A stretch of DNA of 54,162 nucleotides from a virus (Duplodnaviria > Caudoviricetes), in IMG/VR virus record IMGVR_UViG_3300022827_000011, positions 1 through 54,162 of that record; one strand, 5' to 3'. Numbering within the stretch: the first letter of the stretch is position 1; each line of letters opens with the position of its first letter. The notes below the pieces were generated by a model, which was not told where the DNA came from, ran no database searches, and was given only the letters and a program-made list of their open reading frames with translations. Shown here piece after piece: positions 1-32,472 of the stretch. A program made the translations under genes and the position numbers.

Positions 1-49
1 TTAGCATTACTACAGTTTTATAGGAAAGTCAAGATAAAAATTATATATT

Positions 50-410
50 AAAGCAGGGATTGTGGCTTTACACTAGGAGAGCCGCAGCTTGTCCTATTCC
101 CCTATACACCTCTACAGCGATCAACCTATATTATCCTGTAACATTCAGGAATTGCCTTTTCAGGTGGTTTACGATAATTCTTGTGCGGGTCTCTCCCCGC
201 TAGTCACGATTTCACTCGTCGGCCCAGTCGCGATCTGGTGCTTTTCTTAAATTCTAGACCTTGAAAAATTACTAGAGGAATCGAACCCCTCATCTCGGCC
301 TATCCCGATGTTCTACCACTAAACTAAGTAACCTACTATAAAACAATCGGCAAATTACAATATAGTATTTCAAGGTCTTGGGCGATTGCCGCCACCCAAA
401 GTTTGCTATT
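50..410 (-). ncRNA. candidate large structured ncRNA (GOLLD/ROOL-like) with a nested tRNA-like domain
   Basis: ORF-free and GC-richer than its flanks. Multiple hairpins, an 11-bp long-range helix (256-266 with 368-378) and a 3' hairpin AAAGC-CACAAUCCCU-GCUUU (50-69). Lies at the distal end of the tRNA array. Confidence 0.55.
267..333 (-). pseudogene. tRNA-like element without canonical anticodon loop or CCA
   Basis: D-arm GTTTAGTGGTAGAAC, T-arm AGGGG-TTCGATT-CCTCT, acceptor GGTTACT/AGTAATT, 6-nt anticodon loop. Confidence 0.55.
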
Positions 411-506
411 ATGTATTTAAACACAAAAGGGGTTACCTTTATCGCAAACTATTCTATGTCATCGTTGTTGTCATAAATTACTATCATATAACAATTCTGT
501 TTTTAT

Positions 507-544: not shown

Positions 545-620
545 TGATGAACCGTCTCAAGATCGAACCGAGGACCTTAAAATTAAGAGTTTTGCGCTCT
601 ACCAACTGAGCTAACGGTAC
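545..620 (-). tRNA. tRNA-Lys(CTT), degenerate copy
   Basis: Cloverleaf with CTCTTAA loop; stem mismatches and 3' end ATCA instead of ACCA. Confidence 0.6.
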
Positions 621-624
621 ATAT

Positions 625-795
625 TTATTCAGGATCTATTGATCCGTATTTGTTTATTAATCCTTTAATAAACTTCTTGTCTGCTGCACGTTTGACCTTA
701 TTAGGCTTATCATGTACTCCGGCGCCACTGCGTACTACTGCAAACCCAACTACTGGATTACGTGGTTTAGGTACCGGCACTTGTTTTTGTTTCAT
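625..795 (-). CDS. small basic hypothetical protein (56 aa)
   Basis: Hand-translated MKQKQVPVPKPRNPVVGFAVVRSGAGVHDKPNKVKR...; GGAAG upstream; below the ORF-track cutoff. Confidence 0.65.
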   Translation of the reverse strand: MKQKQVPVPKPRNPVVGFAVVRSGAGVHDKPNKVKRAADKKFIKGLINKYGSIDPE

Positions 796-870
796 ATTTT
801 TGCTTCCAAAATGTAATATACGCTAGTTAGTTTACTATAGTAATATCTACAAGAGTTGCGTTTTTATTAT

Positions 871-946
871 TGGTGTCCAGGATCTGAATCGAACAGACAT
901 CCTTGGTTTTTCAAACCAATGCTAAGACCACATCAGCTACCTGGAC
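871..946 (-). tRNA. tRNA-Phe(GAA)
   Basis: Full cloverleaf, TTGGT-TTGAAAA-ACCAA anticodon arm, encoded CCA. Confidence 0.9.
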
Positions 947-955
947 AGATTAATT

Positions 956-1032
956 TGGTGCTTCCAGTAGGACTCGAACCCACAACCTTCGCGTTCGAAG
1001 CGCGACACTCTCTCCAGTTGAGCTATGGAAGC
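956..1032 (-). tRNA. tRNA-Arg(TCG)
   Basis: TCGCG-CTTCGAA-CGCGA anticodon arm, TTCGAGT T-loop, CCA. Confidence 0.92.
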
Positions 1033-1051
1033 ATATTATTTTATTGCAATA

Positions 1052-1387
1052 TTATAGATTGTCTATACGTTTTTGATAACGCATACGTTCTAAATTACCG
1101 ACTTCATGAGACCCGGTTCCGCACCAGTCGACTTCGTTTATAAGCTCGTTGATGATCAGTTTAATCTCTCTCTTGAAATCCTCTGCTTCTGTAATTGCTA
1201 TTTCTAAAGCAGTTTCTGCTTTTTCTACACGTTGCTCCCAATGCTGTATATACTCGCTAACAGCTTGATTACGGATGGCAACTTCAATTACCCCTCCTGT
1301 TTTCATCAGGTGTAGTTCATCTGCAATAAGTTCTTGCGGAGTTCTAGGAAGATTTGTACTTACGATATTATGTTCTGTATTGATCAT
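1052..1387 (-). CDS. hypothetical protein (coiled-coil)
   Basis: 111-aa ORF with AAGG SD and an upstream TTGACA-17-CATAAT promoter. Confidence 0.7.
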   Translation of the reverse strand: MINTEHNIVSTNLPRTPQELIADELHLMKTGGVIEVAIRNQAVSEYIQHWEQRVEKAETALEIAITEAEDFKREIKLIINELINEVDWCGTGSHEVGNLERMRYQKRIDNL

Positions 1388-1495
1388 TTTACTACCTTGA
1401 TTAACATACTTTTATTATGCACAGATATCCTAATGATGTCAACGATTAATTTAGTAGTCGTAGTAGGTTCTTGTCCTACTGCATTTAAGTAATTT

Positions 1496-1570
1496 TGGTG
1501 CTACAGGAAGGTACCGCTCCTTCTACCACTCAGTTATCAACTGAGGCCCTCACTTTTCGGACTCTGTAAC
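1496..1570 (-). tRNA. tRNA-Ile(GAT), atypical D- and T-loops
   Basis: CTCAG-TTGATAA-CTGAG arm, paired acceptor stem, CCA; T-loop lacks TTC. Confidence 0.7.
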
Positions 1571-1695
1571 AATTTTCTATATTCTTCATTGAGATCAGCT
1601 TGATACTCTTACACTTGATCTACACAACTGTATTCATTACTTAGAAGATATGCTTTATAGAGTCAATTCATCTCGCAAGTGTATTTCCTAAATAA

Positions 1696-1770
1696 TGGTG
1701 AACCGGGGGAATTTTGAAATCCCGACACGAAGATTAAAAGCCTCCTGCTCTGCCTCTGAGCTACCGGTAC
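1696..1770 (-). tRNA. tRNA-Lys(TTT)
   Basis: CTTTTAA anticodon loop, cloverleaf, CCA. Confidence 0.85.
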
Positions 1771-1781
1771 ATGTTTGTGTT

Positions 1782-1865
1782 TGGTGGGAGTGGTCGGATT
1801 TGAACCAACTCACTTTACGAACTGATTTACAGTCAGCCACGCCTCTCCAACTGCGTCGCACTCCC
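1782..1865 (-). tRNA. tRNA-Tyr(GTA) copy 1
   Basis: CTGTAAA loop, long variable region, CCA. Confidence 0.9.
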
Positions 1866-1870
1866 CTATT

Positions 1871-1947
1871 TGGTGCTCTTGGTAGGACTCGAACCTACAA
1901 CCAACGGATTCGAAATCTGGTACTCTATCCAGTTGAGCTACCGAAGC
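1871..1947 (-). tRNA. tRNA-Arg(TCG) second copy, weak anticodon stem
   Basis: TTTCGAA loop; D- and T-arms intact; CCA; mismatched anticodon stem. Confidence 0.65.
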
Positions 1948-2166
1948 TTATTCGTGTGATGATTGTCGTGTCATCACATTTACGTCGCCTAACATAGTTA
2001 AGCAGACAATGTTAAAATCGCCTGCTATAACAGTTTTATCATAAATCCATATACAACTACAGATGCTGCCAACAACATCTTTTACCAACATATTAGGGCC
2101 GCCACTATTCAACATAACTGCTGCCCCTGGTATAATAGGTAAACTGGGCTCTATTCGTTTTTGCAC
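1948..2166 (-). CDS. YodC/DUF2158-like small protein
   Basis: VMLNSGGPNMLV...CIW matches the VxLKSGGPxMTV...CxW signature. Confidence 0.7.
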   Translation of the reverse strand: MQKRIEPSLPIIPGAAVMLNSGGPNMLVKDVVGSICSCIWIYDKTVIAGDFNIVCLTMLGDVNVMTRQSSHE

Positions 2167-2326
2167 CAGTCTAAGGTCGTTCTTGTTAAATTGTATTTGG
2201 ATTCTTTTACCTAGTTTGGGTGTGTAGTTGGCTCAACGCTACAGCGGCGCGATTTAACCAGTCAGCTATAACCGGTACCGTTATTCAGCCAGAAAATTCT
2301 TGTATGCGCCCGGATTCGCATATAGT

Positions 2327-2396
2327 TGGTAGTCAATGAAGGTTCTGACCCTACGTCTTTGAAATCCGGTACTCTATCCAGTTGAGCTAATCGGCC
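2327..2396 (-). pseudogene. chimeric pseudo-tRNA (Arg-like 5' half, TTTCAAA loop, unrelated 3' half)
   Basis: 5' half nearly identical to the Arg D-arm; 3' anticodon-stem strand missing; ends in CCA. Confidence 0.6.
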
Positions 2397-2419
2397 ATAA
2401 TATTTCTTTTTGTTATCTC

Positions 2420-2600
2420 ACATTGTTTAGAAGTGTTTAGCCGTAAACATCGGTAAGTTCCTAGGATTATCGATTCTCATTGTTGACTTATCTTGCATTT
2501 AGGTGGCCAAACCTGGTTGCTGCTAGAGTCGATTTAAGAACGTTCGCCATCTGTTCAGATAGAAACTGATCACAACTGACTAAACACATCTAAATAATGT
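2420..2600 (-). ncRNA. candidate 181-nt rod-shaped RNA (6S-like)
   Basis: 23-nt imperfect terminal inverted repeat, nested helices and a central bubble. Confidence 0.5.
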
Positions 2601-2675
2601 TGGTGTGCCGGGTGGGGGTTGAACCCACGACCTTGAGATTAAGAGTCCCTTGCTCTTCCACTGAGCTACCGGCGC
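2601..2675 (-). tRNA. tRNA-Lys(CTT)
   Basis: CTCTTAA loop, cloverleaf, CCA. Confidence 0.88.
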
Positions 2676-2743
2676 ATCGTTTGTCGGTTTCGTCTGTGTT
2701 ATGTTTTCGTTTCATTGTTTTCTTTCCTTTGTTATAGATGTAT

Positions 2744-2821
2744 TGGTCCAACTAACGGGTCCCGAACCTGTATTGATCTCATTGAAAGTAAGGGGTCCTA
2801 GGACATTTAGAAGATAGTTAG
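2744..2821 (-). pseudogene. degenerate tRNA-Glu(TTC)
   Basis: CTTTCAA loop and CCA, but many stem mismatches. Confidence 0.55.
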
Positions 2822-2880
2822 ATTGTGTGGTTGGCTGTCGACTTTCGTCCATTTAACCAGCAAGCTGGCACCGAAATTAA

Positions 2881-2943
2881 ACTCCTAGTAGGGATCGAAC
2901 CTACGCACATTTACTCGAATAAATATGAACCTTTCTTAGGAGC
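2881..2943 (-). pseudogene. D-armless tRNA-like element
   Basis: Acceptor GCTCCTA/TAGGAGT and T-arm GTAGG-TTCGATC-CCTAC; no D-stem, no CCA. Confidence 0.5.
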
Positions 2944-2980
2944 GGGCGGCATGACTTTCGAGATCATTGCCACTTGACTT

Positions 2981-3072
2981 TGGTGAGTTCCGGTGGAGTC
3001 GACCCACGTGCCGTTGTCAGGATGAAGACTGGGCTCCATCACTCTTACGCAAGAGCCTTACTTGCAGAACCC
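2981..3072 (-). ncRNA. tRNA-like RNA with acceptor stem, T-arm and CCA but non-canonical central domain
   Basis: GGGTTCT/GGAACTC-A-CCA acceptor and GTGG-GTCGACT-CCAC arm. Confidence 0.5.
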
Positions 3073-3088
3073 ATATTCTGCATTATTA

Positions 3089-3172
3089 TGGTGGGAGTGG
3101 ATGGATTTGAACCAACTCACTTTACGAACTGATTTACAGTCAGCCACGCCTCTCCAACTGCGCCGCACTCCC
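3089..3172 (-). tRNA. tRNA-Tyr(GTA) copy 2
   Basis: Near-identical to 1782-1865. Confidence 0.9.
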
Positions 3173-3265
3173 GTTATAGTATTCCTAGTAGATAATAATC
3201 ATTTGATATCTATGTTTAAGAGAAGTCTTGTCTACTGCGGATATCCTATAGAGTTGACTTGTTCT

Positions 3266-3342
3266 TGGTACAGCGTATGGGTATCGAACCCATCATCTCT
3301 AGGGTGAAAACCTAGCGACCACCCCGTCTAGTCCGACGCTGC
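3266..3342 (-). tRNA. tRNA-Glu(TTC)
   Basis: CTAGG-TTTTCAC-CCTAG arm, CCA. Confidence 0.88.
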
Positions 3343-3350
3343 ATTGTGTT

Positions 3351-3427
3351 TGGTGATGCTTCTTGGAGTTGAACCAAGGACCTTACCATTATGAGTGGTA
3401 TGCTCTTACCAACTGAGCTAAAACATC
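3351..3427 (-). tRNA. tRNA with CAT anticodon (elongator Met or Ile2)
   Basis: TACCA-CTCATAA-TGGTA arm, paired 1-72, CCA; lacks the initiator GGG/CCC stem. Confidence 0.88.
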
Positions 3428-3435
3428 AAATTTAT

Positions 3436-3519
3436 TGGACGACGGTACGTGAATCGAACACGTTACTTGTTAGTGCTATGGGTTTGCAATCCATCCCCTT
3501 ACCATCCAGGCCACCGTCG
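3436..3519 (-). tRNA. tRNA-Cys(GCA) with extended variable region
   Basis: TTGCAAA loop, U73 discriminator, CCA. Confidence 0.8.
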
Positions 3520-7391: not shown

Positions 7392-7793
7392 CTATTGATG
7401 TAATGGGTATAATTGCATGTAGGAGATTTCTTCTGCCTCAACTGTAAATGCCCACATGCAGGTAACTTCTACAGAAGTAAATGTCTTTCCGTACCAGTTT
7501 TTCCAAGGATAAGTAGGATCTATAGTCATTCCGTGGTGTAAAACATTCATAGAGATAACTTGCATAGCTGCTTTAGTAGCACTAAGTACTAGTGTAGTAC
7601 CAAACGATCTATCATCTTTCCAAGAACGCACACTATTCCAGAGTTCGTAATTTTTTTTATATTCCATACCACACTGATGGTTTACAAATTCGTCAAAGTC
7701 TGATTGAGCATGGGCAGCCTGTGCCATAGCTTTACCTGGATTCATATCCGGCAAGTCTTCTCTCATAATAATGTATAATCTTGGCTCAACCAT
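7392..7793 (-). CDS. peptidyl-tRNA hydrolase, PTH2 family
   Basis: YIIMREDL..MNPGKAMAQAAHA signature. Confidence 0.85.
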   Translation of the reverse strand: MVEPRLYIIMREDLPDMNPGKAMAQAAHAQSDFDEFVNHQCGMEYKKNYELWNSVRSWKDDRSFGTTLVLSATKAAMQVISMNVLHHGMTIDPTYPWKNWYGKTFTSVEVTCMWAFTVEAEEISYMQLYPLHQ

Positions 7794-9210: not shown

Positions 9211-9825
9211 TTATTCCTTCTCTTCATCAAGATAATCGTTGTTAATTTTTTTTGCGATAGTTTTATGAATGCCCGGATTGACTCTTAATACATGCGGCAT
9301 CATCTCGTGTCTAATATAGTTTCTAGTATAACACGTATCGGCATTGCTGTCATCCTCAATCCATGGCACTGTATTAAGTTCTGCCCATAGTGTCAAATCT
9401 CTTTTTCGATTAAGACGAAACGGTCGAATAACATGATTTCTGCGATAAGGAACCCATTTTCCAGTGCCGTTTAAACTACTCCAGATCCAAGTTTCTACAC
9501 AATCGTCTAGGTGGTGACATGTAATTACTGGTACTGTGCTAAACTTATCAAAGAACTCGTAACGCTTTTCTCGCCACCATTCTTCTCGGCTAAGTCCCGG
9601 CGGCACCGTTCCATGACATGTTCCTACAGTAATTGGAATCATCTTCTCATTGCAATATTTTTGTAAGAAATTGCTTGCTGTTTTTCCGTGCGTAGTACCG
9701 TGATCAAAATGTAATACATGCACTCGATGATTACGTCGCAAGAAGTCTAATGCTGCCATACTGTCGACTCCTCCGCTACATGCAATCCATACATTACGAG
9801 GTAGTTTTCCTTGTACTTTAATCAT
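9211..9825 (-). CDS. tilS: tRNA(Ile)-lysidine synthase, minimal PP-loop domain
   Basis: SGGVDSM PP-loop, HFDHG, R..RY.FF, HHLDD..ET, IRP, EDDSN and RNYIRH motifs. Confidence 0.88.
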   Translation of the reverse strand: MIKVQGKLPRNVWIACSGGVDSMAALDFLRRNHRVHVLHFDHGTTHGKTASNFLQKYCNEKMIPITVGTCHGTVPPGLSREEWWREKRYEFFDKFSTVPVITCHHLDDCVETWIWSSLNGTGKWVPYRRNHVIRPFRLNRKRDLTLWAELNTVPWIEDDSNADTCYTRNYIRHEMMPHVLRVNPGIHKTIAKKINNDYLDEEKE

Positions 9826-13815: not shown

Positions 13816-14043
13816 TTACCATTGGCTATATTTAAGTAATGCAAAGGTTAGATCCTTTGGTAATATACTACAATAAGGGCTGTTGATCCATGATTTAAAG
13901 TCGAGATTGACTCCGTTGATATAATAGGTTGCAGTACGATCTCTAGAATTCCAAACTGCCGGGCCATCTGTTCTATGTAACTTCTTATTATTCATCCATA
14001 TTTCGCTACCATTGCTTAATTTAATGCATGTACTATTTGACAC
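13816..14043 (-). CDS. single LHRxDGPA-repeat protein
   Basis: WMNNKKLHRTDGPA; distant paralog of the array at 50241-53138. Confidence 0.75.
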   Translation of the reverse strand: MSNSTCIKLSNGSEIWMNNKKLHRTDGPAVWNSRDRTATYYINGVNLDFKSWINSPYCSILPKDLTFALLKYSQW

Positions 14044-17425: not shown

Positions 17426-18109
17426 TTAAATTTCTGGAAATAAACATTTTTGAATAAAAATATCCACATCAACGGAACTAAGTCCAAGACTTACCATTGT
17501 TCGTGGGGTATGAGGATTTTGTTTTTGAAAATATGCATATCGATTTTGTGCAGCGCGATTTATATTTTCATTGCCTGTATGATTATAGATGCCTACTAAT
17601 GAAAGATAGTCGTCTACATTAGCTAGACTTAAATCCACAATTTGAGCTAGTTCGTCTTCTTTGCTTACATTGCCTGCTGCTATCATGTGTGACGAAAAAA
17701 TAGCCTTAGCCCATTCGGGCAGGTCTCGAGACTTGCGCCACTCTAGCCGAGCTGATTCAGATCCAAACGCCTGAATCATTTCATGAGACGGATCGCTACT
17801 AGCAGAGTAATCGTGAAAAAACCCTGTAATTTTGTTTTTACCAGCAATAACATCTAGCCCAAATATAGGAGCAGAATTATGTAAATGCGGGAATATGCAA
17901 CAATGCATCATCCACAGCCCTCGAGTTTCGCGCGCATCAACTACATCAACATGTGCTCGACGAAACGTATTACTAGTCCACACTCGATTGACCCATCCTG
18001 GACGATTAAATTGTTCCATACCGGGTTCAAATACTTCAGAGCCAACAGTGTTAAACTGTTTAATTAAATGCTCTTGTATTTGAATTAGCGCCTTCCATAC
18101 TTCACTCAT
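17426..18109 (-). CDS. pcyX: ferredoxin-dependent bilin reductase (PcyA/PcyX family)
   Basis: RRAHVDVVD, HCCIFP..PIFGLDV, FHDYS, R.LPEWA.IFS and Q..Y..QKQNPHT motifs; adjacent to heme oxygenase. Confidence 0.82.
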   Translation of the reverse strand: MSEVWKALIQIQEHLIKQFNTVGSEVFEPGMEQFNRPGWVNRVWTSNTFRRAHVDVVDARETRGLWMMHCCIFPHLHNSAPIFGLDVIAGKNKITGFFHDYSASSDPSHEMIQAFGSESARLEWRKSRDLPEWAKAIFSSHMIAAGNVSKEDELAQIVDLSLANVDDYLSLVGIYNHTGNENINRAAQNRYAYFQKQNPHTPRTMVSLGLSSVDVDIFIQKCLFPEI

Positions 18110-18785
18110 TTGTTTTATCTCTATAAATGTAATATAGTTTCAAGGCTCGATTATAAAGAACATTGCACCCTTGATCTTTTTCAATTTGGTCTACATATAG
18201 CTGCAATGCTATTGCAATAATTCCGTTATCGGTATCTAATACAGATTCGTTAATTTCTAATTCCTTAAATAATGTCATAGCAAATTCAAAACATATATTT
18301 GCTTCTGGTGCCATTTCGTCGGATAACATATTACGTATTGTAGATTTCAATACTTCCAAATTGTCAAAATCATACATAGTACCGGACCCTGGATTGCGTT
18401 TGCGAATCATTTGTCCGCCGTACATATCGCCAAAATGTCTTACATAAATATGTGCTAACAACCTATTTTTGTCTTGCATCTGCATTACATAGTCTATATA
18501 TTCAGCAACAACACTACATAAGGATATACTGTTAGGTTTGATATCATATTCGGTTTCTATCTCGGAAATATCTGCAAAAATTCGTTGTGCTCTTGCAACA
18601 TGCTCTATTCCAACGAGAACATTGCAAACAGTTGCTTGATTTTCTAACGCTTGATATATTGCATGTTGATTGCTTAAATATCTGTGATATTCTTTTGCAG
18701 ACATACCGTTTAACAACTTACGAGCATGAGTAGTGCGTTCTGCACGTTGATGATTAGCCCATGTTAGCTCTTTTAATGTACTCAC
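18102..18785 (-). CDS. hemO: heme oxygenase
   Basis: LKELT..H..AE (proximal His), AHIYVRHFGDMYGGQMI, EA..F.FA. Confidence 0.92.
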   Translation of the reverse strand: MSTLKELTWANHQRAERTTHARKLLNGMSAKEYHRYLSNQHAIYQALENQATVCNVLVGIEHVARAQRIFADISEIETEYDIKPNSISLCSVVAEYIDYVMQMQDKNRLLAHIYVRHFGDMYGGQMIRKRNPGSGTMYDFDNLEVLKSTIRNMLSDEMAPEANICFEFAMTLFKELEINESVLDTDNGIIAIALQLYVDQIEKDQGCNVLYNRALKLYYIYRDKTNE

Positions 18786-23333: not shown

Positions 23334-23590
23334 GTTGTGTTCCTTTGTTACTATTATCAGTGCTACACTAATACATTAGCACAAAGTCATGTTAGTGTCA
23401 ATACAACTGTATTATACTTTTCTGATTGAAAATTCGTTAGTATGATTAACATCACCGTTTTGGAGTAGAGCGTTTTGTATACTACTATTTAAACATCGCG
23501 AATGTGTGATTAACACAACACTAAGTAATCAGCCAATACAACTATGTTATATCTTTTTTCCGTTGGTGACATACAATACAGTTAGCCTAA

Positions 23591-23915
23591 GCAAGGGTAC
23601 AGCATGAAACACACTGTACCCTTGCAACTTTTCTGTTTCTAGGTAAGTTGCCAACCCAAGTAGCTTATGCCGCTAGGGCAAAGCTCTCAATAGATGCGTT
23701 AGTATTTGCATTTATCAAATTTATTGCGTTAACCGAGCTTTCGCCGGATATTAATCAAATATGTGTTTTAATCCACGTCGATCCTATTTATCGCCCATAG
23801 CGTTTATCATTTAGTTGTTTACAAGCACTACCTTGAAGATGTCAATCACCCGTCTAAACTAATGGTGGACGATCTGGGTACCGCCCCCAGGTCCGTTAAA
23901 TCTATTACATATTAT
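23591..23915 (-). ncRNA. ssrA: two-piece (circularly permuted) tmRNA
   Basis: Acceptor piece ending ATCGTCCACCA at 23863, intervening segment, coding piece starting GGGCGAT at 23796 (G3:U70 pair). Tag 23665-23709 = ANTNASIESFALAA*; closing hairpin 23591-23625. Confidence 0.92.
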
Positions 23916-23952
23916 CTAGGACAACAGCCAATATATCTCTGCTGAACATACT

Positions 23953-23983
23953 TATTTATAACATTACTCGGCGGAAGTGTCAA
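23953..23983 (-). promoter_or_regulatory. tmRNA promoter (sigma70 plus TATAAATA)
   Basis: TTGACA-17-TATAAA(TA). Confidence 0.7.
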
Positions 23984-24123
23984 GATAAATTTTATAAGCA
24001 TTATTACAATGCTCACAGTCTTTACCGTCTACTTTTCCATGCCCGCCGTTGCATGTGTTGTTACCACAAGATCCGCATATGACTACATCTCGATCGCAAT
24101 GGGTGCAATACATCCATTTATGC

Positions 24124-24836: not shown

Positions 24837-25272
24837 AATTGTTTTCTTTTAATTTACTATTATCGGTAATATCTATATACCCTTCTAATAATTTAACAGA
24901 TATCTTGCCTGTTGAACAGAAATATTCTCTATAACCTGATGTAGTTATCTTACGTTCAATGGTTCCATTAACAATGTTTCCAATAGTTGATCTGCTAATT
25001 TTTACTACAGACTTACGAGATAGTAAGTTTCTTCCTGATATCTTTCTAAGCATTAATTCGGACAATATTTCGTCTGCATTATCTAGAACTATCTGTCGTG
25101 CTTGTACGGCTGAATTTGCAATTACAGTATACCCTTGAAATCTATAGTTATGATATCTGCCACTATAATAGTTGTTTCCTATGTAAACATGCCAACTAGT
25201 CATGTTAGCAAGCAGAAGCAATACAGATTTGTGATCTAGATTTTTAATAGCTTCTGTATTATGCAAGCGCAT
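24823..25272 (-). CDS. hypothetical protein
   Basis: 149-aa ORF. Confidence 0.7.
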   Translation of the reverse strand: MRLHNTEAIKNLDHKSVLLLLANMTSWHVYIGNNYYSGRYHNYRFQGYTVIANSAVQARQIVLDNADEILSELMLRKISGRNLLSRKSVVKISRSTIGNIVNGTIERKITTSGYREYFCSTGKISVKLLEGYIDITDNSKLKENNYESS

Positions 25273-25648
25273 ATCCTGTGTTTTGCAATTCTTCTAACAA
25301 TTTTCGAACAGTTTCTTCAGGCCAAACACCAGATATAACGCTTACTCCGCGATCGGCTTCGTCGATTACATCCTTGGATTCTTTAAGTCCGTAACCAGTT
25401 GCTATTCGAATGGCCTTAATAGCAGAAATTTTCTGTTTCACATTACCCGTTAATGCACGAATTGCTATAGTATTACTATGTTGACCTGCTATTAACTTTA
25501 TTAATACCTGCCGTTTCAGGCTAGGGTCAAATGCATCTAGCATTGCTTCAACTTTTTCTTGACCTTGGTCGACACCAATTTCTGTAATAGCAACACGCAT
25601 TAAATCAATAACGTGCCAGATTAACTTGTTAGAGTATACAGTTTTCAT
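25259..25648 (-). CDS. protein with ribosomal L7/L12 C-terminal-like domain
   Basis: KISAIKAIRIATGYGLKESKDVID matches the bL12 CTD motif KI.VIK.VR..TGLGLKEAKD.V. Confidence 0.75.
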   Translation of the reverse strand: MKTVYSNKLIWHVIDLMRVAITEIGVDQGQEKVEAMLDAFDPSLKRQVLIKLIAGQHSNTIAIRALTGNVKQKISAIKAIRIATGYGLKESKDVIDEADRGVSVISGVWPEETVRKLLEELQNTGYALA

Positions 25649-25818
25649 GTCTTTTCGTCCCAAACAATGCAACGTTCTTTAAACCATGCACGACGGACTG
25701 CTTTTTCTTGTTGGGTTTTTGCAAAATATATCCAACTTTTATATCCATTTACAAACATAATTGCATCGGCAATCATAGTTCCTACAAATAGTACAACGAA
25801 TGTTAATCCAAACATTAT

Positions 25819-29179: not shown

Positions 29180-30274
29180 TCAAATAGCACAAGATTCGCA
29201 TATTCCGTCATCGCTGTCTTCCGATGGCAATGTTGGAAGGCCTGCTAATTTGTTAACATCTAATTCGCCCTGACCGTCATTGGTTTGGAAGTAGTAAAGC
29301 TGCTTTCCTCCAAATTTGTAAAACATTAATAATTCTTGTAACATTACGCTCATTGGGATCTTTTCATCTTCGTAGAATGCCGGATTATGACTAGTATTTG
29401 TGCTTATACCTTGATCGATATATTTTTGTAATACTGCCATAATCTTCAAATATCCCTGCGGCGACTTTTGATCCCACAGTAAATCGTATTTGTTTTTTAA
29501 TCTTTTGTATTCGGGAACAACTTGTTTTAGAACCCCGTGTTTGCTTTGCTTAACGCTAATTAAACTACGAGGCGGTTCGATACCATTTGTGGCGTTAGCT
29601 ACCTGCGCTGATGTTTCTGCCGGCATTAAACAAGAAGTAGTTGCATTACGAATACCAGTTGCTTTGAGTTGTTTACGTAATCCTACCCAGTCTTGACGCT
29701 CGACATGAGGAACTAGTTCGTCAACTGCTTTTTTATAAGTTTGATTTGGAGTGATTCCTTGTCCGTATTTAGTTTGATCGACTCTTGTACATGCGCCTTT
29801 TTCTACAGCTAGATCTGCACTGGCTTTAATAAGCCAATAACTCCAAGCTTCGGCCCATTCGTCTACGAGTGCAAGTCCGTTAGCATTGATATGTTGATAA
29901 GTTAGATCGTTCTTTGCTAACCAGTAAGCAAAATTAATAATACCCACTCCTAATGGTCTAAATTCTTCGGTACTTAGTCGTGCAGCAAGAACTGGATAAT
30001 TTTGATAATCTAGTAATGCATCTAATCCACGAATTGCAAGTCTACATACTCTCTCAAAATCGTCTGTAGTCTTGATATTACCCCAATTTATTGCACTAAG
30101 AGTACATAAAGATATACGACCATCGGGGTCATTTAGGTCATTAAGTGGGCGAGTCGGAAGGTCAATTTCTGAGCAATTGTGAACCAGTATGCCATTTGCA
30201 TAAAAGTTTTCATTTCCTTCTACAGTGATGTCATATACCGGCTCGATTGTAGCTAATTTTGTTATTGTTATCAT
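29180..30274 (-). CDS. nrdA: NrdA C-terminal fragment fused to split-intein C-half (33 aa)
   Basis: MITIT...VYDITV...NFYANGILVHN|CSEI, then RPLGVG, ANATNGIEP, KYIDQGIS, KQLYY and C-terminal CESC; AGAGG SD. Confidence 0.93.
   Translation of the reverse strand: MITITKLATIEPVYDITVEGNENFYANGILVHNCSEIDLPTRPLNDLNDPDGRISLCTLSAINWGNIKTTDDFERVCRLAIRGLDALLDYQNYPVLAARLSTEEFRPLGVGIINFAYWLAKNDLTYQHINANGLALVDEWAEAWSYWLIKASADLAVEKGACTRVDQTKYGQGITPNQTYKKAVDELVPHVERQDWVGLRKQLKATGIRNATTSCLMPAETSAQVANATNGIEPPRSLISVKQSKHGVLKQVVPEYKRLKNKYDLLWDQKSPQGYLKIMAVLQKYIDQGISTNTSHNPAFYEDEKIPMSVMLQELLMFYKFGGKQLYYFQTNDGQGELDVNKLAGLPTLPSEDSDDGICESCAI
30176..30274 (-). mobile_element. split intein C-fragment (IntC)
   Basis: Blocks F (VYDITV) and G (VHN) followed by +1 Cys. 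Confidence 0.9.
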
Positions 30275-30354
30275 AATATTCTTCCTCTGTTCCAATTCCT
30301 AATAATCGGATGTGTTGCTTTAATATGTTTATTTTCTCGCCGCCTGTAATTCAT
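30271..30354 (-). pseudogene. 27-aa mini-ORF, possible homing endonuclease remnant
   Basis: MNYRRRENKHIKATHPIIRNWNRGRIL*; its stop overlaps the IntC ATG; AATAAATA upstream. Confidence 0.4.
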
Positions 30355-30399
30355 ATTTGCATTCCAGACTTATTTATTCATGTATGTACGGAGAAATTA

Positions 30400-32472
30400 T
30401 TACTTACAAATTAACAACACGTCGGTTTCTGTTAAGTCAACTGCCATCACATAACCGCGATTCTTAGTATAGATTAGATGATCGCCTGTACATTTAATCC
30501 TGACTCCTGCTGCATTATCTACAATTTCATATAATTCTGCTGCTGGGTTCATTAATGCAAAATTGGTAATTTTCTTGTATTCGGTTACATCTGTTTCAAT
30601 ATTATATGACCGTACAGCGACGCTATTATGTAACTTCATTAAGTTACCCAAGTCTTCGATGTTGATGCGTAACTTGTTATCGTCGGCAATAATGTCAATC
30701 TTTGTATCACCAGTAACACATAAATTTGACATCTTGATGGGTGCAAACTCTGGTAGGAAGCTGCCTTGTTCGTTGGCGTTGTCCACGTTCTGCAAATAGA
30801 TTCTGCCTGTAGACTTGCGTTCTTCCATGAATGCACTAAACAGATCAATTGCTTTAACCGACTTTTTGCGTACAGTTGGGTTGTGTTCTGCTGCTTCGTA
30901 TAGCTCACGGAATCGCGGTTGGTCTGCAAAGAATGCATCGTATAATCCCGGTACGTCACTAGGCGAAAATAATGTAATGTTACCGCCTTGAATTAATCTC
31001 TCGTACATTAGCTTATTAAATTGTACACCGTAATCTAAATGCCGAATTCGATTTTCTTCTGTGCCTTTGTTGTTCTTAAGCACCAGCATATCTTCTACTT
31101 CTAGATGCCATAGCGGATAGTATGCTGTAGCAGCACCGCCTCTTACCGAACCCTGGCTGTTATGAGTTAACACCATCGAGTCAGACACCGACGAACTTGC
31201 AAAGAATGTATTAGTGTCTTCTACTGTAATGTCAACATACCCTGTTGGATTTTGTTGTCCAACTGTAATCGAATATAAATGTACAATGCCATTTTCTGAA
31301 ATAACGTTGTCAAATTCTGTAAGTTCTTGTGGATATTTTTGTGTTACAACATCGTTATCTACAATCATAATTGGATGATTTACACTACAATTTATTACTG
31401 TTCCGTTTGTAAATTCTAGTCTAACCTGCCGGTCTTCTGTTACTAGTGTATCCCATTTGTTAACAACTTTTCGATATACAATATTTCCGTCTTGATATGA
31501 TTTAATTTTCATTCCGGTATTAAGATCTGCAATACGGATTTTTTTTGTGTTTGGATCAATAATATCTTCGTTGATTATTTCAACAATAGTATCCGGAGTT
31601 AGGCAGCAACTCTTTACAGCCGACTGGAACAACTTATAAAAGGGAATTACTCCTGTATGATATGCATCTCCCTTGCGAATTGGAGAACCGATAGCACGGA
31701 TACTGCCAGCGCCAATTCCAATACCAGCTTTTTGACTTACATACTTTACAATGGCACTGGAAGTAGCATTAATACTGTCTAAGCTATCTCCGGCTTCAAT
31801 TAGCACACAACTACTGAATTGGCGTTGTGGTGTACGTACACCTGCCATAACAGGCGTGGGTAAGCTAATATCGTGTTGACTAATTGCATCATAATATTCT
31901 TTAACCCATTTAATCCTAGTTTCAATGGGGTATTCCTGAAATAATGTAGCAGCAATCAATATGTAACACATTTGTGGTGTTTCAAAGATGTCTCCGGTGG
32001 CACGATTTTGTACCAGATACTTTCCACGTAATTGTTCCATTGCAACATAGGTAAGAGTTTCGTCGCGCTCGTGCTTAATAAAACTATTGATCTTTTCCCA
32101 TTCAAGATCACTGTATTTTGTAGTTAATTCGGGATCGTAGAATCCTGTAGCAGTATTACGGTCAACTAGTTGCTTGACAGTACAAGGAGTAAAACTACCG
32201 TATACTTCCTTACGTAGTGCATAATTAATTAGCCTGCCGCCAACATATTGATAATTCGGAGTATCTTCGTTGATAAGGTCGGCCGCAGCTTTAATTAACG
32301 TTTCTTGAATTTCTTTCGTAGTCATTCCATTATAAAACTGAATTTGACTCTTAATTTCTACTTCGCTTGGGCTCACTCCTGTTATACCTTCACATGCAAA
32401 AAATACCACTTGGTGGATTTTTTCAATATTTAGAGGTTCTTTCGTGCCGCCACGCTTAGTAACTTGAATCAT
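30400..32472 (-). CDS. nrdA: NrdA N-terminal fragment with cis mini-intein and terminal split-intein N-half
   Basis: ATP cone (VTKRGG..E), PTPVMAG, QFSSC, AGIGI, KSC|intein|SQG.VRGG, and SNL|CVTGDT... Confidence 0.95.
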   Translation of the reverse strand: MIQVTKRGGTKEPLNIEKIHQVVFFACEGITGVSPSEVEIKSQIQFYNGMTTKEIQETLIKAAADLINEDTPNYQYVGGRLINYALRKEVYGSFTPCTVKQLVDRNTATGFYDPELTTKYSDLEWEKINSFIKHERDETLTYVAMEQLRGKYLVQNRATGDIFETPQMCYILIAATLFQEYPIETRIKWVKEYYDAISQHDISLPTPVMAGVRTPQRQFSSCVLIEAGDSLDSINATSSAIVKYVSQKAGIGIGAGSIRAIGSPIRKGDAYHTGVIPFYKLFQSAVKSCCLTPDTIVEIINEDIIDPNTKKIRIADLNTGMKIKSYQDGNIVYRKVVNKWDTLVTEDRQVRLEFTNGTVINCSVNHPIMIVDNDVVTQKYPQELTEFDNVISENGIVHLYSITVGQQNPTGYVDITVEDTNTFFASSSVSDSMVLTHNSQGSVRGGAATAYYPLWHLEVEDMLVLKNNKGTEENRIRHLDYGVQFNKLMYERLIQGGNITLFSPSDVPGLYDAFFADQPRFRELYEAAEHNPTVRKKSVKAIDLFSAFMEERKSTGRIYLQNVDNANEQGSFLPEFAPIKMSNLCVTGDTKIDIIADDNKLRINIEDLGNLMKLHNSVAVRSYNIETDVTEYKKITNFALMNPAAELYEIVDNAAGVRIKCTGDHLIYTKNRGYVMAVDLTETDVLLICK
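30403..30720 (-). mobile_element. split intein N-fragment (IntN, 106 aa)
   Basis: Block A CVTGDTKI, block B CTGDH; ends RGYVMAVDLTETDVLL then stop. Confidence 0.9.
31159..31605 (-). mobile_element. contiguous mini-intein (149 aa, no endonuclease)
   Basis: CLTPDT start, CSVNHP block B, YVDITVEDTNTF block F, THN|S end. Confidence 0.9.

Follow-up and report, generated by a model that had tools for sequence, protein, structure and literature searches.

The region and its setting

The window analysed here is the whole of an IMG/VR virus contig of 54,162 bp, which was estimated to be 15% complete. The region under study lies at the extreme end of this contig and forms the tail of a cluster of tRNA genes carried on the same strand; the features found there are collected in Table 1. 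Pfam-matched ORFs of the window included a PTH2-like hydrolase, a PP-loop ATPase and an L7/L12-like protein, together with ribonucleotide reductase pieces with intein parts, a heme oxygenase and a bilin reductase. A promoter-like site was read close to position 1. The exact 9-mer that opens it, TATCTTGAC, occurs at only two sites in the window, this one and 23979-23987 on the minus strand, the latter just 5' of the tmRNA gene; the promoter-like site was absent from the listing of the promoter scan.

Window sequence was present in 14 runs, all of them salt-lake or aquatic DNA metagenomes, and a protein-based search with a 238-aa ORF returned no relatives of the phage. On the position 1 side, the 84,924-bp metagenome contig L149 stops within 1 nt of the window's end, and Logan contigs extend past position 1. 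Two variant contigs are homologous to the window from position 1 to ~458-463 and diverge beyond. Strain variants among the salt-lake metagenome contigs were few, too few for testing the helices proposed in an earlier note on this DNA.

Table 1. Features of the studied region and of its surroundings in the window, with the evidence for each
Feature	Position	Strand	Evidence or description
Promoter-like site: TATCTTGAC, then 17 nt, then a -10-like hexamer	28-36, within 1..36	minus	hexamers read from sequence
3' stretch with four small hairpins	45..180	minus	z +0.42; 126/200 shuffles as good
Hairpin AAAGC/GCUUU	50-69	minus	
Hairpin UAGGGGA/UCUCCUA	74-104	minus	
Hairpin UCCUG/CAGGA	134-150	minus	
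Hairpin CCU-GAAA-AGG	155-164	minus	
Conserved three-hairpin RNA motif	181..247	minus	model R1, 77.3 bits
Tail ACAA	181-184	minus	
H3, GCGGG/CCCGC, loop GAGAGA	185-200	minus	
Linker GUGACUAG, overlapping H2 and H3	200-207	minus	
H2, ACGA-GUGAAA-UCGU	206-219	minus	
P1, 7-nt loop AUCGCGA	222-241	minus	
Clasped tRNA-like domain	254..380	minus	z -3.41; 1/200 shuffles as good
tRNA-like element	266..333	minus	Rfam tRNA, 41.6 bits (gathering score 29)
7-bp hairpin	361-367 with 334-340	minus	sequence
Perfect 11-bp helix	368-378 with 256-266	minus	sequence
5' hairpin, 8 pairs (two G-U), 6-nt loop	392-399 with 378-385	minus	sequence; z -2.35
Upstream tRNA cluster, 11 tRNAs	546..3519	minus	ARAGORN and Rfam
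tmRNA, permuted, alpha-type	~23574-23987	minus	Rfam/ARAGORN scan of the window

Composition of the region

The earlier note, made from the letters alone, had read the region as a single ornate RNA of ~360 nt, either a compact relative of GOLLD and ROOL or a new class. All of the helices that it named were located on the minus strand, in their places, by sequence inspection; the 7-bp hairpin and the P1 hairpin had both been missed. GOLLD and ROOL are large tRNA-associated phage RNAs of several hundred nt. The region resembles them in being phage-borne and near tRNA genes, but its conserved unit is ~67 nt as against several hundred, and a relationship was not borne out by cmscan of positions 1-900 against all 4227 Rfam families (E ≤ 10), in which neither family was matched and the output consisted of two tRNA matches and three chance-level matches. 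At gathering thresholds, scanning of the entire window with Rfam gave tRNA and tmRNA only.

Folding of the parts was compared with that of shuffled sequences. The entire 381 nt scored z -1.26, with 11 of 100 shuffles folding equally well, and whether folding exceeds chance depends on which part is taken: the clasped domain, the 5' hairpin and positions 181-247 (z -2.49) differ in this from the 3' stretch. The score of the 3' stretch (positions 45-180) is no better than that of shuffles and therefore leaves the four 3' hairpins unsupported, along with the pseudoknot that the loop of the terminal hairpin had been proposed to form. In a sensitive blastn comparison of window positions 1-470 with ~140 loci carrying the motif at 181-247, the only matches outside the motif were T-arm-sized ones of at most 15 nt and one 14-mer; the clasped element is thus lineage-specific, as are the 5' hairpin and the 3' stretch.

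These results bear on the possibility of one ornate noncoding RNA of at least 360 nt, in which the tRNA-like domain, the motif and the 3' hairpins would form a single unit, perhaps running beyond the contig end. The parts are adjacent on one strand with no notable ORF, the block from position 1 to ~458-463 was inherited together in the two variant contigs, positions 254-380 are unusually stable, and the Logan contigs continue beyond position 1, so that further RNA could follow. Against this stand the folding scores of the whole and of the 3' stretch, the recurrence of 181-247 alone among the other loci, the absence of a GOLLD, ROOL or other large-RNA match at E ≤ 10, and the occurrence of the motif by itself between genes or tRNAs in other phages. 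A single large RNA is accordingly quite improbable. The region is a composite of elements at the tail of a phage tRNA cluster.

The clasped tRNA-like element

In the clasped domain, the 11-bp helix, the 7-bp hairpin and the acceptor stem of the tRNA-like element meet in a three-way junction without unpaired bases. The minimum free energy fold of positions 254-380 differs from this arrangement in that the 3' strand of the acceptor lengthens the 11-bp helix instead of closing the cloverleaf. The tRNA-like element retains an intact D arm, T arm and 7-bp acceptor stem (two G-U pairs), and CCA is not encoded. Its anticodon arm is reduced to 4 bp and a 6-nt loop, compared with the 5-bp stem and 7-nt loop used for decoding. 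The tRNA-like character proposed previously is upheld by the Rfam match; ARAGORN run on the window did not call a tRNA at 266-333. A strain variant (minus-strand G299 to C) would convert the arm to 5 bp with a 4-nt loop, which confirms this "anticodon" arm as non-decoding. When the element was compared with each of the 11 tRNAs of the window, 39-43 of 68 bases were identical, so it has not been copied recently from any of them. In two variant contigs, a minus-strand G383 to A change converts a U-G pair of the 5' hairpin to U-A.

We infer that the clasped element is a separate, lineage-specific tRNA mimic that is unable to decode; it may serve as a processing handle. In YrlA RNA, a tRNA-like module with D and T arms and no decoding anticodon loop is closed by a helix of the flanking strands. 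Positions 254-380 were compared with YrlA and resemble it in the D and T arms, the non-decoding loop and the closing helix. The YrlA family model RF02553, however, had no match at 254-380, and on the ordinary tRNAs of the window it scored at most 18.5 bits, as in control genomes. No TROVE/Ro60 gene was found among the 45 window ORFs scanned, in a contig that represents only ~15% of its genome.

A conserved three-hairpin RNA motif

Positions 181-247 are matched by a covariance model (R1) built from 21 sequences, which has no other match in the window at E ≤ 1. All members share a core. It begins with H2, a hairpin in which the sequence and loop vary but the base is always A-C...G-U, and continues through the linker into H3. 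The linker, GUGACARG, is invariant and single-stranded, its GU being counted in H2 and its last G in H3; a strain variant of the window (minus-strand A201 to G) falls on the R. H3 has 5 bp and its top is always GG-GAGAGA-CC. Among the 127 instances listed, H3 is followed by A (103), C (94) and A (83), and then by A/T-rich sequence even in GC-rich contigs. A subclass that includes the window carries an extra 5' hairpin, P1, with a 7-nt GUCGCGC-type loop within a conserved GGUCGCGCC. The 5' boundary of the motif is variable in sequence and in length.

Compensatory changes were seen in the 21-sequence set at 6 of 6 pairs of P1 and 3 of 5 pairs of H3. In the same set 97.1% of pairing cells could pair, compared with 83.3% in shuffles, the covariation score was reached by none of 500 shuffles, and partners slid out of register paired in 26-51% of cases. 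In a set of 51 sequences, covariation was seen at both H3 positions that the search pattern did not fix: one was CG in 43, UA in 4, AU in 2, GC in 1 and UG in 1, and the other was GC in 34, CG in 8, AU in 4, GU in 4 and another combination in 1. Three positions of H2 showed 4-6 pair types each in this set, which had been picked for having the H2 stem, so that the high H2 pairing percentage is partly built in, and in whose alignment the rows of the window and of phage B1VFA are shifted in the H2 part. P1 contained 17 G-U or U-G cells and no A-C cells; G-U pairs without A-C pairs indicate that the constraint acts on RNA of the minus strand and not on duplex DNA or the opposite strand.

Neither in the window nor in seven other carriers (L018, L005, L022, L121, L100, L071 and L150) did a search of Rfam 15 at E ≤ 10 match the motif. 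Positions 181-247 thus belong to an uncatalogued family of structured phage RNAs. The earlier suggestion of a new class holds for the hairpins at 185-219, which are the core of this family, and fails as to its nature, since the family is ~45-70 nt long and modular rather than large and ornate. No description of the motif was found in literature searched by words and sequence strings; it may be among the 10,006 candidate viral RNAs of Fremin et al. (2023; PMC10690425), a source available to us in part.

Several known folds were compared with the motif by eye and rejected, their defining cores or partner strands being absent: the hammerhead, twister, hairpin and HDV ribozymes, a k-turn at the base of H2, the cobalamin and Mn2+ riboswitches, a CRISPR-repeat mimic and mimicry of an rRNA loop. 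Inspection by eye also led us to drop a pseudoknot joining the P1 loop to the linker, which never varies and so leaves nothing to covary.

Distribution of the motif

When positions 1-700 of the window were compared by blastn with 50,697 phage records, 25 were matched, 24 of them through ordinary tRNA-Lys similarity. The remaining record, Rhizobium phage B1VFA, showed 95.7% identity over 47 nt to window positions 181-227. Its element (276-342) is unannotated, begins 276 nt from the left end of the genome and lies one base 5' of a tRNA-Cys gene. Further instances were collected from IMG/VR with exact-pattern seeds, so the apparent breadth of the family and its variable positions are biased by the choice of seed. 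An 18-mer taken from the B1VFA match gave 22 stretches, 21 of them with the full motif; a 19-mer from the last hairpin gave 38; and a pattern degenerate at two H3 stem positions gave at least 119. After removal of duplicates, at least 127 distinct instances were obtained from all seeds, on phage contigs, in cultured phages and at a few prophage-like genome sites.

The motif is rare in cellular genomes. When 185,579 species genomes were searched for one exact variant, 7 stretches carried it, six from named Alphaproteobacteria and one from a "Proteobacteria bacterium". In the bacterial genus of one carrier, R1 matched 1 of 101 genomes, and so the motif moves with mobile DNA rather than being a feature of the host.

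Cultured carriers comprise B1VFA, Cronobacter phage CS01 and its relatives, and Planktothrix phage Pag-Yong1 (two copies) with related cyanophage records. Several diverged copies lie among the tRNAs of Caulobacter phages CcrColossus and CcrPW; in CcrColossus, an annotated ORF on the opposite strand overlaps two of them. By type, the carriers include N4-like phages, T7-like phages (judged by capsid, polymerase and primase families), T1-like phages, giant Caulobacter phages and jumbo phages. R1 detected a single copy in B1VFA (122 kb), as it did in each of three virus records (170, 310 and 330 kb); it detected none in a 446-kb record, yet the degenerate pattern locates one copy there (locus L098). 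In coliphage mEp390 a hairpin resembling H3, with the loop GAAAGA, lies downstream of the repressor gene.

Genomic context

The motif is often found in close register with tRNA genes. Among the 127 instances listed, a same-strand tRNA starts within 12 nt after H3 (0-8 nt after the ACA tail) in 15, no more than 75 nt separate GUGAC from the end of a preceding tRNA in 11, and tRNAs flank the motif on both sides in 7, where it exactly fills a tRNA-sized slot. Three of the upstream tRNAs end in CCA directly 5' of the motif. Within the arrays it occupies the middle or the end and not the start. No tRNA was present within the fetched locus for 92 of the 127 instances listed, and excision by tRNA enzymes therefore cannot be the general route. 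Away from tRNAs, the motif typically lies 0-17 nt past a same-strand stop codon and 11-60 nt before the next start.

Pfam scanning of 66 of 108 downstream ORFs (those left out being mostly the shortest ones and near-duplicates) assigned a family to 20, and these were diverse: DNA polymerase A, ribonucleotide reductase, primase-helicase, Prim-Pol, T7-type capsid, TerC, HNH, GcrA and others. A common neighbour protein was sought within 2.5 kb of the motif, and no family occurred in more than 9 loci. A U-rich tract directly follows H3 in 6 of the 127 instances listed and a terminator lies within 90 nt in 1, so most copies are without an obvious 3' end of their own. A link to tmRNA was considered and rejected, a tag-like reading frame after the motif being present only in Cronobacter phage CS01, 1 of the 127 instances listed.

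The diversity of the neighbours bears on the idea that the motif is a ligand-sensing riboswitch, or else a site acting at the DNA level (a promoter, attachment or recombination site). Either would be in keeping with the conservation of unpaired bases, with the three loci in which a TerC gene directly follows the motif and with the two in which the motif directly follows an integrase gene. The downstream genes, however, share no common pathway and some are tRNAs; the compensatory changes and the G-U pairs without A-C pairs favour RNA over duplex DNA; and the motif is not a host feature beside tRNA genes, as the single match among 101 genomes of one genus indicates. This explanation is very improbable.

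The strongest rival is a cis-acting element of processing or stability, a form of punctuation that would mark a cut in the 3' A/U-rich stretch (for example by RNase E) and protect the RNA upstream of it against 3' exonucleases, so that cistrons and tRNAs are separated. The spacing from the preceding stop and to the next gene, the A, C, A and A/T-rich sequence after H3, the diversity of downstream genes and the placement between tRNAs in arrays would all be expected of such an element. Protection of a 3' end, on the other hand, needs no invariant 8-nt linker and hexaloop kept across phages of distant hosts, and one copy per 120-330-kb genome is too few for general punctuation. On this evidence a role of this kind is unlikely.

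Comparison with known phage RNAs

The nearest precedent is provided by RNAC and RNAD (species 1 and 2 RNAs) of phage T4, small RNAs of the tRNA cluster described as having no known role (PMC3014915, PMC9697503). RNAD starts 1 nt past tRNA-Arg and RNAC 6 nt past RNAD; like these, the region studied here comes at the tail of a tRNA cluster and shares its strand. The T4 RNAs differ in being 119 and 139 nt long and in having no GUGACARG-GAGAGA core. The first hairpin of RNAD is led by GAGAA, and its 7-nt loop, GUCGCUA, is identical to that of P1 in two motif loci (L051 and L139); the stems are different yet complementary. On T4, R1 gave a local match of 7.7 bits to the first hairpin of RNAD only (E 0.16 in 5 kb), and no overall similarity of the motif to RNAD was found beyond that hairpin. 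A scan for the P1 hairpin by itself (GAGAA, a gap and GGTCGCTACC) matched at least 119 stretches. Of the 76 distinct matches listed, 3 had at least three further stem pairs and none had the core downstream, and the scan matches are therefore ascribed to chance. The likeness of the RNAD hairpin is a lead rather than homology and could itself be due to chance.

Small structured RNAs abutting phage tRNA genes are also known in the theta (minimal HDV-like) ribozymes, which have a nested double pseudoknot, a catalytic C and no P4 (PMC10879173). The motif shares their position beside tRNAs but differs in its consensus of three separate hairpins with no supported pseudoknot. In a by-eye fitting of the motif to a nested double pseudoknot with a catalytic C in J4/2, no P1 and P2 partners were found. 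A new class of small self-cleaving ribozyme, trimming tRNA or mRNA ends as the theta ribozymes do, could nevertheless be imagined. The motif comes within a few nt of tRNA ends, comparable to the ±5 nt given for theta ribozymes (PMC10879173), has unpaired nucleotides that never change although its stems do, and is dispersed among unrelated phages, at times beside integrase or HNH genes. Set against this are the lack of a supported pseudoknot or multi-helix junction, an arrangement of three hairpins in a row unlike known self-cleavers, a 5' boundary that varies in sequence and length, and the lack of a match to any known ribozyme family. With this specific evidence against it, such a ribozyme is quite improbable.

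A further comparison was made with the put sites of phage HK022, which are stem-loops of ~70 nt that act as RNA without a dedicated phage protein and are present in one or two copies per genome (PMC9378689). A put-like processive antiterminator would bind RNA polymerase as nascent RNA and carry it past terminators and Rho-dependent stops, a function of use in long untranslated tRNA arrays and early operons. The motif is of similar length and architecture and is likewise usually single-copy. At one locus (L050) a promoter-like site, TTGACG-17-TATAGA, ends ~5 nt 5' of the motif; the B1VFA copy, near the left end, precedes the first genes; the related mEp390 hairpin stands where the leftward early operon starts; and the wide host range suits a target as conserved as RNA polymerase. 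The put sites lie just after promoters, whereas the motif is often inside or at the end of tRNA arrays and not at their start. With filters off, R1 scored no more than 9.9 bits in the HK022 immunity region (22-34 kb), its best match lying inside IS903; nothing was found in the PL-nun region and no likeness was seen in the putL region. Moreover, the left-end genes of N4-like phages are transcribed by a virion polymerase rather than by the host enzyme. Antitermination has this specific evidence against it, and its probability is small.

Proposed function

The reading that we favour, at somewhat short of an even chance, is that the motif is a putative small stable RNA, excised by tRNA-processing enzymes and binding a conserved host factor. 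It is favoured because the unpaired bases are strictly conserved while the stems vary freely, because there is one copy per genome, and because spacing in the arrays is tRNA-like, no neighbour gene is common to the loci and the hosts are distant. The same features argue against a leader for a specific gene or a metabolite riboswitch.

Under this proposal the motif would be a discrete small stable RNA of ~45-75 nt and not the leader of any particular gene. In tRNA arrays it would take the place of a tRNA: the RNase P cut at the next tRNA would set its 3' end, and its 5' end would arise as nucleases trim the tRNA before it at the 3' end. Outside the arrays the RNA would travel on polycistronic mRNA. 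The invariant linker and hexaloop would bind a factor conserved across Proteobacteria and Cyanobacteria, candidates being a component of the host's machinery for RNA or translation, or else a widespread defence protein that targets RNA, and the RNA would work as a decoy, sponge or modulator. The tight fit of the motif after stops and before starts, and its A/U-rich tail, suit a cis-acting element equally well.

A more specific form of the favoured reading is tentative and rather doubtful: that the GUGACARG-GAGAGA RNA represents a new, horizontally mobile class of phage small RNA, matured by the host's tRNA enzymes in arrays, that is a putative binder of a conserved factor and a functional counterpart of RNAC and RNAD. 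The factor in question would span Alphaproteobacteria to Cyanobacteria, and the RNA may be, for example, a decoy for an RNA-targeting defence nuclease or a modulator of translation or RNA decay.

Significance

To our knowledge, the conserved small structured RNAs known from phages are few, and those that are understood are fewer still. The region described here pairs an unusual clasped tRNA mimic with a member of a phage RNA family that is compact, widespread and apparently undescribed. The family combines strict invariant nucleotides with clear covariation and has no entry in Rfam 15, and its cultured carriers B1VFA and CcrColossus, whose hosts are harmless, make the question of function directly testable. 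Its placement in arrays, like that of RNAC and RNAD of T4, offers a tractable and widely conserved handle on the non-tRNA RNAs of phage tRNA clusters.

The permuted tmRNA gene and the contig end

The tag encoded by the permuted tmRNA gene of the window (see table) was ANTNASIESFALAA. Immediately upstream of this gene lay the 9-mer TATCTTGAC, of which the whole window held a single further exact copy, at 28-36 (-), at the contig end beside the minus-strand region 50-410. An independent 84,924-bp metagenome contig (L149), related to this phage, terminated no more than 1 nt from this end at position 1, and Logan contigs (strain variants from salt-lake metagenomes) from other runs extended beyond it. 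Window position 1 may coincide with a genome terminus or with a repeat.

Elements adjoining the motif in other loci

In Cronobacter phage CS01 (L150), the stretch next to the motif, a conserved small phage RNA, scored 27.4 bits with tmRNA_permuted and 21.9 bits with alpha_tmRNA, both below the gathering threshold. It contained a tag-like frame (ANDDLMLMAA followed by a stop) and a hairpin ending in CCA; ARAGORN made no call in this stretch. A tag-like frame after the motif was found in CS01 only (1 of 127 motif instances) and was absent from the other motif loci. A second recurring element, UUCGCCC-GAAU-GGGCA, was located directly past the motif in L025, L030, L050, L060, L061, L067 and other carrier loci; in some loci it also preceded the motif or recurred ~200 nt further on, and it may form the boundary of small RNA units. 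The ORF following one motif copy in L047 (2875-3501) matched the Acb2/Tad1 hairpin domain, a domain of anti-defence sponges, at a sub-threshold 24.9 bits (cut-off 27).

As a lead and not as evidence of homology, the first hairpin of phage T4 RNAD (L162 1649-1672 (-); GAGAA lead, loop GUCGCUA) resembled the P1 hairpin of the motif in L051 and L139, and T4 RNAC carried two copies of GAGUAGCG, similar to the P1 loop variant GUAGCG.

Locations of tmRNA-related features and protein genes
Feature	Location	Strand	Remarks
Unannotated tmRNA-like stretch	L150 1237-1430		starts nine bases past motif
Permuted two-piece tmRNA gene	window 23574-23987	(-)	alpha_tmRNA 96.4 bits, tmRNA_permuted 95.8 bits
Heme oxygenase and ferredoxin-dependent bilin reductase genes	window 17426-18785	(-)	side by side
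PTH2-like peptidyl-tRNA hydrolase	window 7392-7793	(-)	translation-related
PP-loop (TilS-like) ATPase	window 9211-9825	(-)	translation-related
Protein with L7/L12 C-terminal domain	window 25259-25672	(-)	translation-related

Protein genes

The ribonucleotide reductase large subunit was divided over two ORFs (29180-32472 (-)). Of an intein splicing domain, the N-part stood at the end of the first ORF and the C-part at the start of the second, an arrangement that by its predicted domains resembles an intein that is split or interrupted. A heme oxygenase gene next to one for a ferredoxin-dependent bilin reductase is typical of cyanophages; this pair contrasts with the alpha-type tmRNA and the salt-lake metagenome origin of the phage, and the combination points to no one host.

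tRNA genes and partial tRNA mimics

Isoacceptors were repeated in the window tRNA cluster (1696-1947 and 2601-3172 (-); Lys three times, Tyr and Arg(tcg) twice each), which suggests tandem duplication within the array. T-arm-like hairpins with GGUUCGA-type loops, belonging to no full tRNA, were present amid tRNAs and motif copies in Caulobacter phage CcrColossus (L148 1700-1810) and in L025 (~13880-13920). Partial tRNA mimics comparable to the tRNA-like element at window 266-333 seem common in these arrays.
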